Made by a program: the position numbers and the translations under genes
Assembly: GCA_035650715.1 (NCBI GenBank)
Contig: DASRHC010000011.1
Coordinates: forward strand, 695-64,694
Direction: 5' to 3'
Length of the DNA stretch: 64,000 bases
From: Candidatus Methylomirabilota bacterium
GTDB taxonomy: Bacteria; Methylomirabilota; Methylomirabilia; Rokubacteriales; CSP1-6
The notes under the pieces: generated by a model
Seen by the model: only the letters and a program-made list of their open reading frames with translations
Database searches by the model: none
What the model was told of the DNA's origin: nothing
Shown: positions 12,158 to 18,766 of the stretch, one piece after another
How positions within the stretch are numbered: the stretch's first letter is position 1
Layout: each line of letters opens with the position of its first letter

Positions 12158-12607
12158 ATGATCCGGGTGAAGCGGGTCTACGAGAAGCCGTCCCCCGCGG
12201 ACGGCCTGCGAGTGCTGGTCGATCGCCTGTGGCCGCGCGGCCTGTCGAAGCAGCGGGCCGCGGTGGACGTGTGGCTGAAGGACGTGGCCCCGAGCCCCGA
12301 GCTGCGCAAGTGGTTCGGCCACGACCCGGCCCGATGGAAGGAGTTCCAGTCGCGCTACCGGAAGGAGCTCCGCGCGCAGAAGGAGGCGCTGGGGCGGCTC
12401 CGGCGGGAAAGCAGGACGCGGACCGTCACCCTGCTCTACGGGGCGCGGGACGAGGAGCACAACGGGGCCCTCGTCCTGAAGGAGGTCCTCGAAGACCCCG
12501 CGATCTGCTGGGCGAGCCGAGGGTCTCACGCGCACGCGAGGGGCGCGCGGTACACTCCGGGTGTCCCGCGCGCACCCGCGTGGGACACGCAGGATGACAT
12601 GGCATGA
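12158..12607 (+). CDS. DUF488 family protein
   Basis: [46 protein letters not shown]...RYRKEL is the DUF488 signature. AGGAGAG RBS. Its stop overlaps the copA ATG (ATGA). Confidence 0.7.
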
Positions 12608-14967
12608 GCCAGCGAGGCGACGAATCCGTGGCGTCGGCCACGTCGAAGGACCCCGTGTGCGGCATGGATGCGGGTCCGGCCGACGCGCCGGGCGGCAGCG
12701 CCGAGCACGCGGGGACGACGTACTGGTTCTGTAGCCCGGTCTGCCGGCAGCGGTTCGCGGCGGACCCGAGCCGCTACGTCGGCGCCCCGTCGCCCCCTCC
12801 GGCGTCGGCGCCCCCTTCCGCGTCGCCGCCCGCGCCGGCGGTGACCGGGCATCGCGTCTACACCTGCCCGATGCACCCCCAGATCGTTCGCGACGGGCCG
12901 GGCGGCTGCCCGATCTGCGGGATGGCGCTCGAGCCGCTGCTGGCCACCGCGGAAGAGGGCCCCGATCCCGAGCTGGTCGACATGACCCGCCGATTCTGGA
13001 TCGGGCTCGTGCTGGCGCTCCCGTTGCTCGTTCTCGCGATGAGCGACATGCTGCCCGGCGAGCCGCTCCGGCGTCTGCTGTCCGGCCGGGCCCTCGCCTG
13101 GCTGCAGGCCGTCCTCGCCACCCCGGTCGTGCTGTGGGCGGGCCGGCCCTTCCTCGTCCGCGGCTGGGCCTCGATCGTCCATCGCAGCCTGAACATGTTC
13201 ACGTTGATCGCCATCGGGACCGGCACCGCCTACGTGTACAGCCTGGTCGCGACGGTGGCCCCCGGCCTCTTCCCGGCTTCGTTCCGGACCCACGGCGGCG
13301 AGATCGGCCTCTACTTCGAGGCCGCCGCGGTGATCACGGTGCTGGTGCTGCTCGGTCAGGTCCTGGAGCTCCGGGCGCGCAGCCGGACGAGCAGCGCCAT
13401 CCGGGCCCTGCTGAACCTCGCGCCTCCGACCGCCCGACGCCTTCGCGCCGACGACACCGAGGAGGACGTGCCCCTCGAGGTGGTGCAGGTCGGCGACCGC
13501 CTGCGCGTCCGCCCCGGGGAGCGGATCCCGGTCGACGGCGTGGTCCTGGACGGCGCGAGCGCGGTCGACGAGTCGATGATCACGGGCGAGCCGATCCCGG
13601 TGGAGAAGACGGCGGGCAGCCCGCTGTCCGGGGGCACCGTGAACGGCCTCGGCAGCCTCATCATGCGCGCGGAGCGCGTCGGCAGCGATACCCTGCTCGC
13701 GCGCATCGTCCAGATGGTGAGCGAGGCGCAGCGGACGCGGGCTCCGATCCAGCGGCTCGCCGATCAGGTGTCGGCCTGGTTCGTGCCGGCGGTGGTCGTC
13801 GCGGCGGTGCTGACGTTCATCGGATGGAGCCTCTGGGGACCGGAGCCGCGCTTCGCCTACGGGCTGGTGAACGCGGTGGCGGTGCTGATCATCGCCTGTC
13901 CGTGCGCCCTGGGCCTGGCGACGCCCATGTCGATCATGGTGGGCACCGGGCGCGGCGCGATGGCCGGCGTGCTGATCAGGAACGCGGAGGCGCTGGAGGT
14001 GATGGAGCGGGTCGACACGCTGATCGTCGACAAGACGGGCACCCTCACCGAGGGGAGGCCGCGCCTCGTCGCGGTGAAGCCGGCGCCCGGGCAGGACGAG
14101 GCGTCCGTGCTCCGGTACGCGGCGAGCCTGGAGCGCGGGAGCGAGCATCCGCTCGCCGCGGCGATCCTCGCCGGCGCGGCGGAGCGCGGGATCACCCCGC
14201 CGGCCCCGGAGGAGTTCCGATCCGAGACCGGGAAGGGCATCGTGGGCCGCGTCGGGAGCCGGGCCGTCGCGCTCGGCAATGCCCGGCTCATGGAGGATCT
14301 GGGCGTGGCGGTCGGGGCGCTGGCGGCCCAGGCCGAAACCCTGCGGGAGGACGGTCAGACCGTGGTGTTCGTCGCGGTCGAGGGGCGGCCGGCCGGGATC
14401 GTGGCCGTCGCCGACCCGATCAAGTCATCCACGGCGGACGCCATCGCCGCGCTGCACCGCGCGGGGCTCGATATCGTCATGGTGAGCGGCGACAGCCGGC
14501 GCACGGCGACCGCGGTCGCCCGCACGCTGCGCATCGATCGCGTGGAGGCGGAGGTGCTGCCGGAGGACAAGAGCCGCGTCGTGCAGGCCCTCCAGAAGGA
14601 CGGCCGGCGGGTGGCGATGGCGGGGGACGGGGTCAACGACGCGCCCGCGCTGGCCCAGGCCGACGTCGGGATCGCCATGGGGACGGGGACCGACGTGGCG
14701 ATCCAGAGCGCGGGGATCACGCTGGTGAAGGGCGATCTCCGCGGCATCGTCCGCGCCCGGCACCTGAGCCGCGCCACCATGCGGAACATCCGCCAGAACC
14801 TCTTCTTCGCGTTCGTGTACAACGCGCTCGGCGTCCCGCTCGCGGCCGGGGTCCTGTACCCGGTGCTGGGCATTCTCCTGAGCCCCATCATCGCCAGCGC
14901 CGCGATGACGTTCAGCTCGGTCTCGGTCATCGCCAACGCGCTGCGGCTCCGGCGCGTGCCGCTCTGA
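12604..14967 (+). CDS. copA: copper-translocating P1B-type ATPase with N-terminal YHS/TRASH-like and CPxH..CPxC metal-binding motifs
   Basis: DPVCGM...[12 protein letters not shown] (YHS), then YTCPMHPQI...CPICGM. TM region with the CPC motif (IIACPCALG), [17 protein letters not shown]. Confidence 0.9.
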
Positions 14968-15206: not shown

Positions 15207-15413
15207 ATGGGGGAATCCCGGCCGACCAGGAACGAGGGTGAAGGCAACCGCAGCGCCGATCGAGAGTACCGCGAGGACGTGCGGCGTCACGTCGAGTCCG
15301 GGGCGGTGGAGCCCGCGGCCAAGGAAGCGGAGAAGACGCTCGACGGGCCCGAGGCCGAGGAGCTGCGCCGAGCCGAGGAGGCGGGCAAGGCCGGACGCAC
15401 GGGCCGGAGGTGA
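15207..15413 (+). CDS. small highly charged hypothetical protein (68 aa)
   Basis: MGESRPTRNEGEGNRSADREYREDVRRHVESGAVEPAAKEAEKTLDGPEAEELRRAEEAGKAGRTGRR. AAGGAGG RBS 8 nt upstream of the ATG. In the track it is hidden in the tail of the artefactual 13134..15413 ORF. Confidence 0.45.
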   Translation: MGESRPTRNEGEGNRSADREYREDVRRHVESGAVEPAAKEAEKTLDGPEAEELRRAEEAGKAGRTGRR

Positions 15414-15464: not shown

Positions 15465-16457
15465 TCAGCGCATGGCCGGCTTCGCCGAGTAGCGGGCGCG
15501 GGCCAGCTCCACGATCTCCAAAATGGTGTCGCGGTAGGTGCGCCCGGAGGCGCGCGCGCCCTTGATGAACTCGGCCCCGGAGGAGAGGTAGGGGTTGGGA
15601 TTCGCCTCGATGAGGTACACGGTGCCGTCCGGAGCGAGCCGGAAGTCCACGCGGGCGTAGTCCCGCAGGTTCAGCGCGTGGAACGCGGTGAGGGCCGCGT
15701 GCCGCAGGGTCTCCTGCACGTCGTCGGGGAGCGCGGGCAGCACGAGCCGGCTGCCCCGGTAGGCGCGGGTGCCTTCTCCCCATTTCACCTCGGTGCCGGC
15801 GATGCGGGGCGTGCCCTTGGGCAGGTGCGAGAGATCGAGCTCGATCGGGGGCAAGGCCCGGGCCTGGTGGTTGCCCAGCACGCCCACGTAGATCTCGCGG
15901 CCCTCGATGTACTGCTCGATGAGCACGGGGTGATCGAACTCGGACTGTAGCTGGTCGATGCGCTCCATCAGCTCCTTGATGCTGCCGACCAGGGCGTCGA
16001 AGCCGATGCCGATCGAGCCGTCTTCCCGGGCCGGCTTCACGATCACCGGGAAGTCGATGTCGTGCGCCGAGTCCAGCCGCCCGCGCCAGACCACCGCCCA
16101 CCGGGGCGTGGCGAGCCCGTGGAAGCTGAAGATCTTCTTGGCCAGCGCCTTGTCCATGGCCAGGGTGAGGCCGCGGACCCCGGAGCCGGTGTAGCGAAGC
16201 CCCAGCAGGTCGTAGTACGCGGCCACGTGGGGCTCCTTGGTGTCGTCGTCCCCGAAGGATTCCACCAGGTTGAACACCAGGTCGGCCTGCGCCTGGGCGA
16301 GCGCGCGCAGGCACTCCGGCGTGCCGTCCACCGCGAGGCCGGATACGTCGTGCCCCGCCTTCCGCAGGACGTCGGCGACCTGCTGGACGTCGGTCTTGCG
16401 CCGGCCCTTGGGGCCGTCGATCGACTCGTCAGCGCCGTGGGCGACGATGATTCGCAT
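15465..16457 (-). CDS. ATP-grasp enzyme, D-alanine--D-alanine ligase-like
   Basis: N-terminal Ddl_N-like (DLVFNLVESFGDDD), central ATP-grasp (FPVIVKPAREDGSIGI, EQYIEGREIYVGVLG, YLIEANPNPYLS). Confidence 0.8.
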   Translation of the reverse strand: MRIIVAHGADESIDGPKGRRKTDVQQVADVLRKAGHDVSGLAVDGTPECLRALAQAQADLVFNLVESFGDDDTKEPHVAAYYDLLGLRYTGSGVRGLTLAMDKALAKKIFSFHGLATPRWAVVWRGRLDSAHDIDFPVIVKPAREDGSIGIGFDALVGSIKELMERIDQLQSEFDHPVLIEQYIEGREIYVGVLGNHQARALPPIELDLSHLPKGTPRIAGTEVKWGEGTRAYRGSRLVLPALPDDVQETLRHAALTAFHALNLRDYARVDFRLAPDGTVYLIEANPNPYLSSGAEFIKGARASGRTYRDTILEIVELARARYSAKPAMR

Positions 16458-17505
16458 GGTGGGGGCTGGCCTGATGGCCGCGGTGCCCGCGGCCCGAGCG
16501 ACGGGCGCGCGGGATGAAGCGGCCGTGGGTGAGGAAGTTCATCGCGAGCGTGGTGGCGTAGGTGGTCAGCTCCACCAGCGTGGCGGCCTCGGCGGCCGCC
16601 GGCACCGCCAGCTGAAGACGCGCCGCGGTGTCCTCGATCTTGGTGACCAGCGCCCGGATGGCGCTCCGGCGCACGCCGGTCCAGTACTCGATCTTGTTGA
16701 CGAGGACGGCGCGGTGCTCCCGCAGGAAGTCGGCGGCCGGTCGGGTTCCGGCGCGGCGCCGCACGAAGAAGTCGGGCAGGTCGTGCTCCAGCGCCACGTC
16801 CACCGGCTCCTGCACCGACTCCTGCGCCCGGAAGAACTCCTCCACCGTCATGTTCATCTCCTCGACCGTGATGTCGGTGGAGGCGATGCGCACCACCGGG
16901 TCGGCGTCGCCGAGCCGGCGCGCGGTGCGCTCGACGTAGCGGAGCTTGCGCATGGCCGGCCAGCCCCGGTAGCGCTCGCGCCAGCGCGAGCGGGGGGTCA
17001 GCCAGACCGCGAAGGTCTCCGCGAAGTCCTCGTCCGGATGCTTCTGGGCGTACCAGCCCTCCATGTGACGCACGAAGCGCCGGTCGAAGGGCACCGGCTT
17101 GTAGCGGTCGCGGTAGGGGCGATTGAAGGGCCCGAACTGCTCGCGCCATTCCGGGGTCTCGTACAGCCGGTACGCGTAGTTGAAGGCGTGGCCCGCCTCG
17201 TGCCGGAGGTACATGCGGATCTCGCGGGCGTCCTCGACGTCGTCCAGCTCCTTCTCGAGGCGCGCGAGGTTGGCGTCGGCCAGATAGAACGGGATGCCGA
17301 TGATCGGCTCCTCGTCCGGGCAGCCCCACTCATCGGTCAGGTAGGTGGGAGGGCGAAACCGCTTCAGTCCCTTGGCCTCCAGCTCGCGATAGAGATCGGC
17401 GACGTAGCGTTCGACCGGTGATCCCTCGAGCTTCAGGCCCAGCTCGCTGACCCGCTGGGAGAGCAGCGGCTTGAGGTCGGGAGGAGCCGTCTCGAACCCG
17501 GCCAT
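16429..17505 (-). CDS. putative zinc metallopeptidase (Peptidase_Mx-like, HEAGHAFNY HExxH)
   Basis: HEAGHAFNYAYRLYETPEWREQFGPF... The zincin-like HExxH plus downstream E matches the 'putative zinc-binding metallopeptidase' family. This family is recurrently neighboured by ATP-grasp ligases. Its 3' end overlaps the ATP-grasp start by about 29 nt. Confidence 0.65.
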   Translation of the reverse strand: MAGFETAPPDLKPLLSQRVSELGLKLEGSPVERYVADLYRELEAKGLKRFRPPTYLTDEWGCPDEEPIIGIPFYLADANLARLEKELDDVEDAREIRMYLRHEAGHAFNYAYRLYETPEWREQFGPFNRPYRDRYKPVPFDRRFVRHMEGWYAQKHPDEDFAETFAVWLTPRSRWRERYRGWPAMRKLRYVERTARRLGDADPVVRIASTDITVEEMNMTVEEFFRAQESVQEPVDVALEHDLPDFFVRRRAGTRPAADFLREHRAVLVNKIEYWTGVRRSAIRALVTKIEDTAARLQLAVPAAAEAATLVELTTYATTLAMNFLTHGRFIPRARRSGRGHRGHQASPHHANHRRPRR

Positions 17506-17581
17506 CGCTCCATGCTAGCCCTCCCGCCGCCCGCGGGCAATTCTCGGAACGGATGGACCGGTTCGGCTTAGAATCTGGTCC

Positions 17582-18766
17582 ATGACCGTCTCCAGAGGGC
17601 GCGCGCTGCTCAGCATTCCGGGGCCGACCAACATTCCCGACGCGGTGCTCGCCGCGATGCATCGACCGGCCATCGACATCTACGCCGGCGACATGCTCGC
17701 GGTGACCCGCAGCCTGCTCGAGGACCTGCCGAAGATCTTCCGGACCGCGGGACGTACGTACATCTATGCGGCCAACGGCCACGGCGGGTGGGAGGCCGCG
17801 CTCACCAACGTGCTGTCGCGGGGCGAGACGGTGCTGGTGCTGGAGAGCGGGCTGTTCGCGCTCGGCTGGGGCGACATGGCGCGGATGCTGGGGGTCAAGG
17901 TCGAGGTGCTGAAGGGCGACCCGCGGCGTGCGGTCGATCCGGCCGCGCTCGCCCAGCGGCTCCGGGCCGATGCCGCGCACGAGATCAAGGCCGTCCTGGT
18001 GGTCCAGATCGATACCGCCTCGGGGGTGGTGAACGACCTCGAGGCGATCCATCGCGCCATCGCCTCCGTGGGCCATCCCGCGCTGCTGATGGTGGACTGC
18101 GTGGCCTCGCTCGGCTGCATGCCGTTCGAGATGGACCGGTGGGGCATCGACGTGGCGATGGCGGGCTCGCAGAAGGGACTGATGACGCCGCCCGGTCTGG
18201 CCTTCGTCGCGGCCGGTCCGCGCGCGCACGCGGCCCATCAGCACGCGGACCTCCGCACGCGCTACTGGGACTGGACCTTCCGCGAGGGCGAGGCGCACTA
18301 CCAGAAGTACGGAGGCACCCCGCCCGAGCACCTGCTCTTCGGCCTGCGCAAGGCGCTCGACCTGCTGCTGGAGGAAGGCCTCGAGGCCGCGATCCGCCGC
18401 CACGCCCTGCTCGCCGAGGCCACGCGGCGGGCGGTCGCCCGGTGGTCCGAAGGGGGCGCGCTCGCCTTCAACATCGTCCGCGCCGAGGAGCGCGCGAACT
18501 CGGTGACCACGGTGCTCGTCGAGGGCCGTGAGCCGGGACCGATCAGCGACTACTGTCGCGACTGCTGTGGCGTGGTCCTCGGCCGAGGGATCGGGGACCT
18601 GCAAGGCCGGGCCTTCCGGATCGCCCACATGGGCCACGTGAACGCGCCGATGGTCTTCGGGGTGCTGGGAGCCATCGAGATGTCCCTGCAGGCCCTCGGC
18701 ATCCCGTACGGGAAGGGTGGCGTCCAGGCGGCGGTGGAGTACCTCGGAGGCGAGGTCCGCCCCTAG
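17582..18766 (+). CDS. class V aminotransferase (alanine/serine--glyoxylate aminotransferase family, PLP-dependent)
   Basis: LLSIPGPTNIPDAVLAAM...GSQKGLMTPPGLAF (PLP-Lys region), about 394 aa. Confidence 0.8.
   Translation: MTVSRGRALLSIPGPTNIPDAVLAAMHRPAIDIYAGDMLAVTRSLLEDLPKIFRTAGRTYIYAANGHGGWEAALTNVLSRGETVLVLESGLFALGWGDMARMLGVKVEVLKGDPRRAVDPAALAQRLRADAAHEIKAVLVVQIDTASGVVNDLEAIHRAIASVGHPALLMVDCVASLGCMPFEMDRWGIDVAMAGSQKGLMTPPGLAFVAAGPRAHAAHQHADLRTRYWDWTFREGEAHYQKYGGTPPEHLLFGLRKALDLLLEEGLEAAIRRHALLAEATRRAVARWSEGGALAFNIVRAEERANSVTTVLVEGREPGPISDYCRDCCGVVLGRGIGDLQGRAFRIAHMGHVNAPMVFGVLGAIEMSLQALGIPYGKGGVQAAVEYLGGEVRP

Follow-up and report, generated by a model that had tools for sequence, protein, structure and literature searches.

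What do an amide-forming ligase and a zinc peptidase accomplish together when their genes overlap? The question is raised by a locus on the minus strand of a 64,000-nucleotide (nt) stretch of DNA from a Candidatus Methylomirabilota bacterium (contig DASRHC010000011.1, positions 695 to 64,694; hereafter, the window). Its upstream gene (16429..17505, read 17505→16429) encodes a peptidase-like protein of 358 residues, and its downstream gene (15465..16457, read 16457→15465) encodes a 330-residue ATP-grasp ligase that descends from D-alanine-D-alanine ligase (Ddl) and has a remodeled substrate pocket. An earlier sequence-only reading had described the two as a strictly co-translated pair that might make or modify a peptide, with a neighboring aminotransferase as a possible supplier of substrate. 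Our answer, which we favor tentatively, is that the two genes specify a cytoplasmic module complete in itself, one enzyme making an amide bond that the other breaks.

Co-inheritance of the ligase and peptidase-like genes

Both open reading frames (ORFs) were confirmed on the minus strand, the peptidase-like gene first and the ligase gene second, and the predicted same-strand overlap of about 29 nt was found at 16429..16457, running from the peptidase-like stop codon to the ligase start. The G+C content of the region is 70-73%, and long spurious ORFs are common at such values. A word-indexed search returned more than 8000 homologues of the peptidase-like protein, whose family comprises 1851 clusters at 50% identity (E ≤ 0.001), 458 of them at E ≤ 1e-30. 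The closest relatives, from Candidatus Methylomirabilota/Rokubacteria metagenome-assembled genomes (MAGs), are 86-92% identical, and identity between phyla is 61-64%. Homologue sets of this size, together with such identity across phyla, indicate real genes as opposed to chance ORFs of 71% G+C DNA.

The ligase gene adjoins the peptidase-like gene in all 151 related loci with enough flanking sequence, which come from Methylomirabilota, Acidobacteriota, cyanobacteria and soil metagenomes. Eighty of the loci surveyed are from genomes of Methylomirabilota and Acidobacteriota (mostly Terriglobales, including the cultured Occallatibacter savannae) and encode peptidase-like proteins 58-92% identical to that of the window; four are cut by contig ends, and in the other 76 of 76 the ligase gene lies directly downstream. 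A second subfamily, from Vicinamibacterales and the cyanobacterium Petrachloros mirabilis (36-39% identical to the window protein), has the ligase gene adjacent in four of four contigs with room, each time with a 4-nt overlap. Another 80 loci were taken from soil and sediment metagenomes, with 39-84% identity to the better-matching of two queries, and the ligase gene was adjacent in 71 of the 71 with room, downstream in 70 and upstream in one (L135). The expectation of the sequence-only reading that the pair would recur in other genomes was thus borne out, and the window copy is an ordinary member of a paired clade. Five loci whose peptidase-like proteins are 61-91% identical to that of the window (L005, L012, L013, L022 and L049) carry the labels Gemmatimonadales, Verrucomicrobiia, Limnocylindria, Acidimicrobiia and Clostridia, which point either to errors in MAG binning or to a module that has moved horizontally.

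The 29-nt overlap is also present in the closest relatives of the window pair. Other junctions in Methylomirabilota and in the distant subfamily are overlaps of 29, 38 or 4 nt, and those of Terriglobales are mostly spacers of 0 to ~90 nt. Because the length of the junction varies among relatives, translational coupling is common and not obligatory. Spacers separate the genes in many relatives, and in one the gene order is reversed; the proposal of strict co-translation is therefore retained in the weaker form of a tightly linked, often coupled unit. In the window, the ORF reaches 29 nt into the ligase gene by virtue of the Arg/His-rich C-terminal tail of the peptidase-like protein (residues 332-358, 16429..16512, minus strand), a disordered and non-conserved segment.

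The two proteins have also diverged together. Across 67 loci, their pairwise identities correlate with r = 0.97, and the peptidase-like protein is the more conserved of the two in 86% of comparisons. Both are joined in a natural fusion, P0198 (L093:6001-7707; also L094), a 568-residue chain that runs from the peptidase catalytic domain straight into a complete ATP-grasp ligase, every motif being preserved and the C-terminal helical domain described below being left out. Four members make up the P0198 cluster; their contigs measure 256, 201, 6.9 and 5.6 kb and come from several independent sources. Neighbors of the fusion locus include genes for PspC, for a Na+/H+ exchanger with TrkA_N and, ~5 kb off, for a pyruvoyl arginine decarboxylase.

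Linkage of this kind would also be expected of two enzymes that act in sequence, with the peptidase unmasking a carboxylate or an amine (by cleaving a peptide, for example) and the ligase re-joining it elsewhere, as in salvage or a two-enzyme transpeptidation. The order of peptidase before ligase is near universal in the gene pairs and is repeated in the domain order of the fusion, and in the LysW pathway an ATP-grasp enzyme, LysX, and a metallopeptidase, LysK, likewise bracket a single pathway. Gene order is no proof of reaction order, however, and it is reversed in L135; moreover, no gene for an intermediate enzyme or a carrier is conserved near the pair. We regard such a sequential pathway as improbable.

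A ligase of Ddl ancestry with replaced substrate-binding residues

The ligase matches Pfam Dala_Dala_lig_C with E = 4e-29, and a Dala_Dala_lig_N domain was not detected in the Pfam search. Its nearest PDB matches are Ddl enzymes (E = 1e-23), with Ddl and VanA topping the list, and it is ~30% identical to E. coli DdlB over residues 67-305. The RimK family PF08443 appeared only as a secondary match, in a few homologues. Scores against the NCBIfam Ddl models fall far short of the cut-offs, at 147 bits against 243 for the best model (NF002378) and 124 against 246 for TIGR01205. AlphaFold2 run on the ligase alone with a shallow alignment gave a poor model (predicted local distance difference test score [pLDDT] 57, predicted template modeling score [pTM] 0.51), and the residue analysis was made on an alignment of the window ligase with DdlB and 14 orthologues from three clades.

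All nine of the DdlB residues that serve ATP, Mg2+ and acyl-phosphate binding (K97, K144, E180, E187, K215, R255, D257, E270 and N272) are identical in the window ligase and in 14 of 14 orthologues. The last four, which are the acyl-phosphate/Mg2+ ligands, correspond to the catalytic core R269-x-D271 ... E284-x-N286 of the window protein (15600..15653, minus strand). The D-Ala-binding positions, in contrast, are changed in the window ligase and its 14 orthologues. In the place of the E15 segment of DdlB there is a variable, strongly basic insert, which reads GPKGRRK in the window (region 16367-16424, ligase residues 12-30), measures 7-10 residues in Methylomirabilota, extends to as many as ~25 Lys/Arg-rich residues in Terriglobales and is absent from the distant subfamily. 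The insert was noted in the window and in the L049, L023 and L036 orthologues. In the ligase family, H63 is replaced by E (E66 in the window), S150 by G or A, Y216 by W or F, G276 by Y, W or Q, S281 by A, S, H or E, and L282 by E or D (E296 in the window).

With the NCBIfam cut-offs missed by ~100 bits and the D-Ala-binding residues replaced, the ligase is, as judged from its sequence, not a D-Ala-D-Ala ligase and is Ddl-like by ancestry only. The description of the protein as a D-Ala-D-Ala-ligase-like ATP-grasp enzyme is accordingly right about its descent and wrong as to specificity. The automatic annotation "D-alanine--D-alanine ligase" is widespread in the family and should be treated as an error. 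In the 90%-identity cluster of the best ligase match (97% identical), one member bears the name "ATP-grasp domain-containing protein" (Methylomirabilota bacterium). The pattern of kept and replaced residues predicts an active amide ligase of Ddl ancestry that would be competent for acyl-phosphate chemistry and would use a substrate pair different from that of Ddl.

Taken at face value, the automatic annotation and the Dala_Dala_lig_C match would place the pair in cell-wall D-Ala-D-Ala metabolism, as a true Ddl with a VanX-like dipeptidase. Against this stand the missed score of even the best Ddl model and the replacements in the E15 region and at S150, Y216, S281 and L282. No mur or dcw genes lie nearby, and the peptidase-like protein does not belong to M15/VanX and lacks a signal peptide. 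The chance that the pair serves the cell wall in this way is very slight.

The same residues bear on a less remote alternative, the synthesis of a small molecule. Here, an enzyme of the L-amino-acid-ligase type would make a free dipeptide or pseudopeptide, such as a compatible solute or storage compound, and the zincin would set the level of the compound or edit wrong products, as VanX does for VanA. All characterized close relatives of the ligase, including the Ddl and VanA enzymes that are its best PDB matches, are small-molecule ligases, and the acidic residues E66 and E296, in place of H63 and L282 of DdlB, suggest that the substrate is a basic amine. The variable, strongly basic insert at the donor site, on the other hand, fits a small amino-acid donor poorly, and neither an exporter nor a regulator is conserved with the pair. 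We consider this explanation somewhat unlikely. It overlaps with our preferred reading of one enzyme forming and the other cleaving an amide bond, the chief difference being whether the acceptor is free or protein-bound.

A predicted gluzincin with a family-specific helical domain

The upstream protein had been proposed to be a HEAGH zincin of the Peptidase_Mx type, and this proposal is supported. Its match to Pfam PF15887 (Peptidase_Mx; E = 4.2e-6) covers residues 90-169 only, or 80 of 358, and at 26.8 bits falls marginally under the gathering score of 27; no other Pfam family was matched at E ≤ 0.01. Among diverse homologues, 52 of 52 match PF15887 (E ≤ 0.1; best E = 9.7e-11); Peptidase_Mx1 is matched as well by 23 of these, and ATLF, the family of anthrax lethal factor, by five. 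Several homologues score more than 27 bits against PF15887. A precomputed PF15887 label is attached to 119 of the 120 best database matches. As far as sequence comparison goes, the family assignment probably holds despite the sub-cut-off score of the window protein.

A confident AlphaFold2 model built with the 52 diverse sequences (pLDDT 92.3, pTM 0.85) divides the protein into an N-terminal catalytic domain (residues ~1-200) and a family-specific helical C-terminal domain of ~130 residues (~200-331), to which no Pfam family matched. Over residues 331-358, the mean pLDDT drops from 73 to 47; homologue matches mostly stop near residue 331-332, and the tail is absent or different in relatives. 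No N-terminal hydrophobic segment is visible in the sequence of either protein of the pair, so both are presumably cytoplasmic.

The HEAGH zinc-binding/catalytic motif, read from the sequence, spans residues 102-106 (H102, E103 and H106; 17188..17202, minus strand). A second active-site motif, YAQKHPDEDFAE (17017..17052, minus strand), runs from Y152 to E163 and was recognized from homologue conservation and from the pattern of E. coli MtfA. The 52 homologues, which extend down to 30% identity to the window protein, all share H102, E103, H106, F124, G125, H156, P157, D160, E163 and K187; conservation of Y152 and E159 is 90% or higher. The segment 152-YAQKHPDEDFA, which contains 159-EDFA, has the Y-x6-E-x-F-A pattern of 204-YAASDPAECFA in MtfA, at a distance of 50 residues from HEXXH as compared to 56 in MtfA. 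In the latter protein, a member of the gluzincin class, zinc is bound by H148, H152 and E211, within the motifs 148-HEXXH-152 and 211-EXXA-214 (PMC13482132). The correspondence of the Y-x6-E-x-F-A pattern to this zinc site makes E159 the predicted third zinc ligand. We take Y152 to be the catalytic tyrosine by comparison with the structures of MtfA and lethal factor, and E159 presumably has its equivalent in lethal factor as well. With 102-HEAGH and a third glutamate in an E-x-x-A helix (159-EDFA), the protein has the motifs of a gluzincin, and the predicted site is complete, as would be expected of an active peptidase.

Beyond these motifs, resemblance to known structures is faint. A Foldseek search of the PDB with the model yielded weak matches (E ~0.6) to 4L7A, a Bacteroides "putative zinc-binding metallo-peptidase", and to lethal factor. 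Sequence searches of the PDB returned nothing with the single sequence and only non-significant sigma-factor matches (E = 0.04) with a profile. Membership in the MtfA family (MEROPS M90) was considered and found to be unsupported, as hhalign of the 52-sequence profile against E. coli MtfA gave a probability of 0.45% (E = 0.13) over 14 columns, and the profile similarity is not significant beyond the HEXXH helix.

Rather than working as a peptidase, the protein might chiefly regulate or scaffold the ligase or some other macromolecule, in the manner of MtfA, which titrates Mlc. Several findings are consistent with such a role, including the higher conservation of the peptidase-like protein than of the ligase and the 130-residue helical domain that is specific to the family and has no known match. 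MtfA, which has the motif too, works through binding to Mlc and has no known substrate of its own (PMC13482132), while RimB, besides its hydrolytic activity, stimulates RimK (PMC11957791). The full catalytic set, however, is invariant or nearly so in 52 members with identity down to 30%, which argues for retained hydrolysis, and the natural fusion keeps the catalytic domain and drops the helical one. A mainly regulatory or scaffolding role is hence quite unlikely in our judgment.

Possible joint function of the pair

In the amide-forming and amide-cleaving module that we favor, the ATP-grasp enzyme would activate a carboxyl group as an acyl-phosphate and join it to an amine, most likely that of an amino acid. 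The product might be a short peptide, an isopeptide tail or an oligomer, and the acceptor might be free or protein-bound. The gluzincin, expressed together with the ligase, would hydrolyze the same or a closely related linkage and in this way trim, remove or recycle the product. Such a logic would be that of RimK/RimB, which carry out S6 polyglutamylation and its removal, of the tubulin ligases and carboxypeptidases, and of glutathionylspermidine synthetase/amidase. Joint action on one bond is inferred, as are the chemistry of that bond and the nature of the acceptor.

The points counted in favor are the linkage, co-divergence and fusion of the two genes, their overlaps, the retained ligase residues, the peptidase motifs and the absence of any other conserved partner. 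Action on a shared bond can be called the simplest account of an acyl-phosphate-competent ligase and a complete gluzincin site that are inherited together, occasionally fused and accompanied by no further partner.

Several considerations weigh against it. The case for a shared bond draws entirely on linkage and analogy, and a sequential pathway would fit the linkage equally well. The ligase derives from Ddl, whose known relatives join small molecules, and not from RimK or the tubulin tyrosine ligases (TTL), which modify protein tails. The greater conservation of the peptidase-like protein would be unusual for a simple trimming enzyme, and it may reflect binding to a conserved macromolecule. 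Finally, no ligase gene adjoins at least four remoter relatives in the peptidase family (36-41% identical), indicating that the peptidase can work alone. Pairing is thus a property of several clades of the family and does not extend to the Mx family as a whole.

One of the unpaired members has a neighbor of its own. At L089:4621-6059, where no ligase gene is adjacent to P0172 (41% identical), a gene for a 127-residue retropepsin-like aspartic protease (Asp_protease_2, the RimB fold) overlaps the start of P0172 by 4 nt.

As to the acceptor, the evidence pulls in two directions. A small, possibly basic amine is favored by descent from Ddl and by the acidic residues that have entered the nucleophile pocket; a macromolecular partner is favored by the basic donor-site insert and by the very strong conservation of the peptidase-like protein. 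An unlikely but specific form of the second option is that the pair is an unrecognized bacterial system that adds amino acids to, and trims them from, a conserved cellular protein in a reversible manner, at its C-terminus or at an acidic side chain. Such a system, with the same low likelihood, would parallel RimK/RimB and the tubulin tyrosination cycle and would have arisen separately, by combining a Ddl-derived ligase with an MtfA/lethal-factor-like zincin. It would then also, no more probably, be widespread in hard-to-culture soil phyla (Methylomirabilota and Acidobacteriota) and in some cyanobacteria.

Relation to known ligase-hydrolase systems

Literature searches on PF15887 and on ATP-grasp ligases combined with gluzincins found no characterized member of a pair of Ddl-derived ligase and gluzincin, in agreement with what the sequence-only reading had supposed; PF15887 and the name "putative zinc-binding metallopeptidase" surfaced in unrelated mentions only. 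The Pfam family is one of no known function, and the window protein represents a divergent branch that is tied to a ligase.

The hydrolase-synthetase Gss of E. coli (glutathionylspermidine synthetase/amidase) unites an N-terminal hydrolase with a C-terminal ATP-grasp-type synthetase, both acting on the same amide bond, and its amidase is a CHAP cysteine hydrolase. The P0198 fusion has the same domain order. Gss is nonetheless unrelated in sequence to the pair, and nothing in the pair points at a polyamine substrate.

ATP-grasp peptide tagging of proteins has been reviewed (PMC4431377). The best-documented precedent for the pair is RimK/RimB, in which ribosomal protein S6 gains glutamates through RimK; RimB, encoded on the same transcript, takes them off and also stimulates RimK, and RimB-RimK hybrids occur naturally (PMC11957791). 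The present pair resembles RimK/RimB of Pseudomonas in combining an ATP-grasp ligase with a peptidase and in having natural peptidase-ligase hybrids. It differs in that the ligase is of the Ddl lineage and not of the RimK family, in that there is no RimA, and in that the peptidase is a predicted zinc gluzincin whereas RimB belongs to the retropepsin-like aspartic proteases. The resemblance would be one of function, an analogy and not a homology, and the pair is not to be classed as a RimK/RimB system.

Each protein also has its own closest comparison. Ddl and VanA are the nearest sequence relatives of the ligase and share its ATP, Mg and acyl-phosphate residues; unlike them, the ligase has no detected Dala_Dala_lig_N domain, has replaced the D-Ala residues, carries a basic insert at E15 and is found outside a cell-wall gene context. 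With the gluzincins of the MtfA/lethal-factor type, the peptidase-like protein shares HEXXH, the Y-A-x3-P-x-E-x-F-A pattern and the zinc ligands His, His and Glu (predicted here), in addition to weak fold and hidden Markov model matches to lethal factor and ATLF. It departs from MtfA in its N-terminal region, in its C-terminal helical domain and in being paired with a ligase, which MtfA is not.

Catalogues already hold both protein families, and modules of ligase plus peptidase are known as a kind; what lacks a characterized member, so far as found, is the combination of a Ddl-derived ligase with a remodeled pocket and an MtfA/lethal-factor-like gluzincin with its own helical domain. Methylomirabilota and Acidobacteriota, major phyla of soil on which experimental biology is sparse, carry the linked, sometimes fused module in abundance, and thousands of public genomes and metagenomes carry the label "D-alanine--D-alanine ligase" for its ligase, which amounts to systematic mis-annotation. 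Should the enzymes add a peptide tail to a protein and remove it, bacteria would have two systems of the RimK/RimB type that evolved independently; should they make a small amide, a new and perhaps stress-related metabolite would result. For direct tests, the natural fusion is a convenient construct to begin with, as it is a single chain.

Genomic surroundings of the pair

A divergent class-V aminotransferase gene (17582-18766, plus strand) faces away from the pair, and this pyridoxal-phosphate enzyme had been suggested to supply an amino-acid substrate. Its best NCBIfam match, BhcA (L-aspartate--glyoxylate aminotransferase), reached 329 bits, about half of the cut-off of 650. No orthologue was found beside the pair in the 80 related genome loci, five of which are 86-92% identical to the window; in only three distant loci of this set did a paralogue (30-32% identical) occur, 1.7-5 kb from the pair. 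Adjacency is thus not conserved, and the aminotransferase was rejected as a partner.

The two divergent genes share a region of 76 nt (17506..17581), which presumably holds the promoter and leader of the two-gene operon. Neither a sigma-70-like promoter nor an intrinsic terminator was detected, and a search for riboswitches or leader RNAs gave no significant Rfam match, the single hit (E = 0.36) being far under its gathering score. A PADLOC search for defense systems matched neither protein.

Clustering of neighboring ORFs over 80 plus 86 loci revealed no conserved third gene (no third ORF of at least 80-90 residues). The recurrent clusters were either shadow ORFs over the pair or lineage-specific neighbors. 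In the window, the 76 nt upstream of the pair and the ~50 nt after the ligase gene leave no room for a precursor-peptide gene. A graspetide or other cluster for RiPPs (peptides made by the ribosome and modified after translation), which would have such a gene adjacent, was therefore set aside; the small convergent ORF nearby is not conserved. That ORF (15210-15413, plus strand), which converges on the ligase gene, would encode 67 residues and is highly charged (MGESRPTRNEGEGN...); neither Pfam nor the related loci gave a match to it.

Certain lineages do show settings of their own. In a Vicinamibacterales-type lineage (L081:6135-10075 and L084:4084-8078; also L165 and L172), the pair directly follows gatC-gatA, and the gatA stop overlaps the peptidase-like start, which suggests one transcript with these tRNA-amidotransferase genes. 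Cyanobacterial-type loci and one Vicinamibacterales locus (L082:1932-9062, L086:541-10380 and L085:903-7071) have the pair flanked by genes for MscS-type channels and for alpha-amylase/CBM48 proteins of the GlgX, TreZ or GlgB type, a possible osmotic or desiccation context. In five metagenome loci (L109, L125, L154, L157 and L158; e.g., L158:11665-12693), the opposite strand carries a deoxyhypusine-synthase-like gene 2-3.6 kb downstream of the pair, which hints weakly at polyamine metabolism. The MscS and trehalose/glycogen genes, the deoxyhypusine-synthase-like gene and the arginine decarboxylase near the fusion are weak osmolyte or polyamine hints for the small-molecule synthesis considered above, but such themes occur in only a few lineages, and neither the window nor its close relatives show them. 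None of the four settings, gatCA included, recurs widely enough to build on.

In six peat and bog metagenome loci (L099, L100, L119, L120, L121 and L128; e.g., L120:3634-5214), probably of one lineage, a protein of ~520 residues with no Pfam match is encoded upstream of the pair, directly adjacent in four of the six. Elsewhere in the window (12158-14967, plus strand), a DUF488 gene (12158-12607) overlaps by 4 nt a gene for a heavy-metal P-type ATPase (12604-14967), which carries YHS and HMBD metal-binding domains at its N-terminus.

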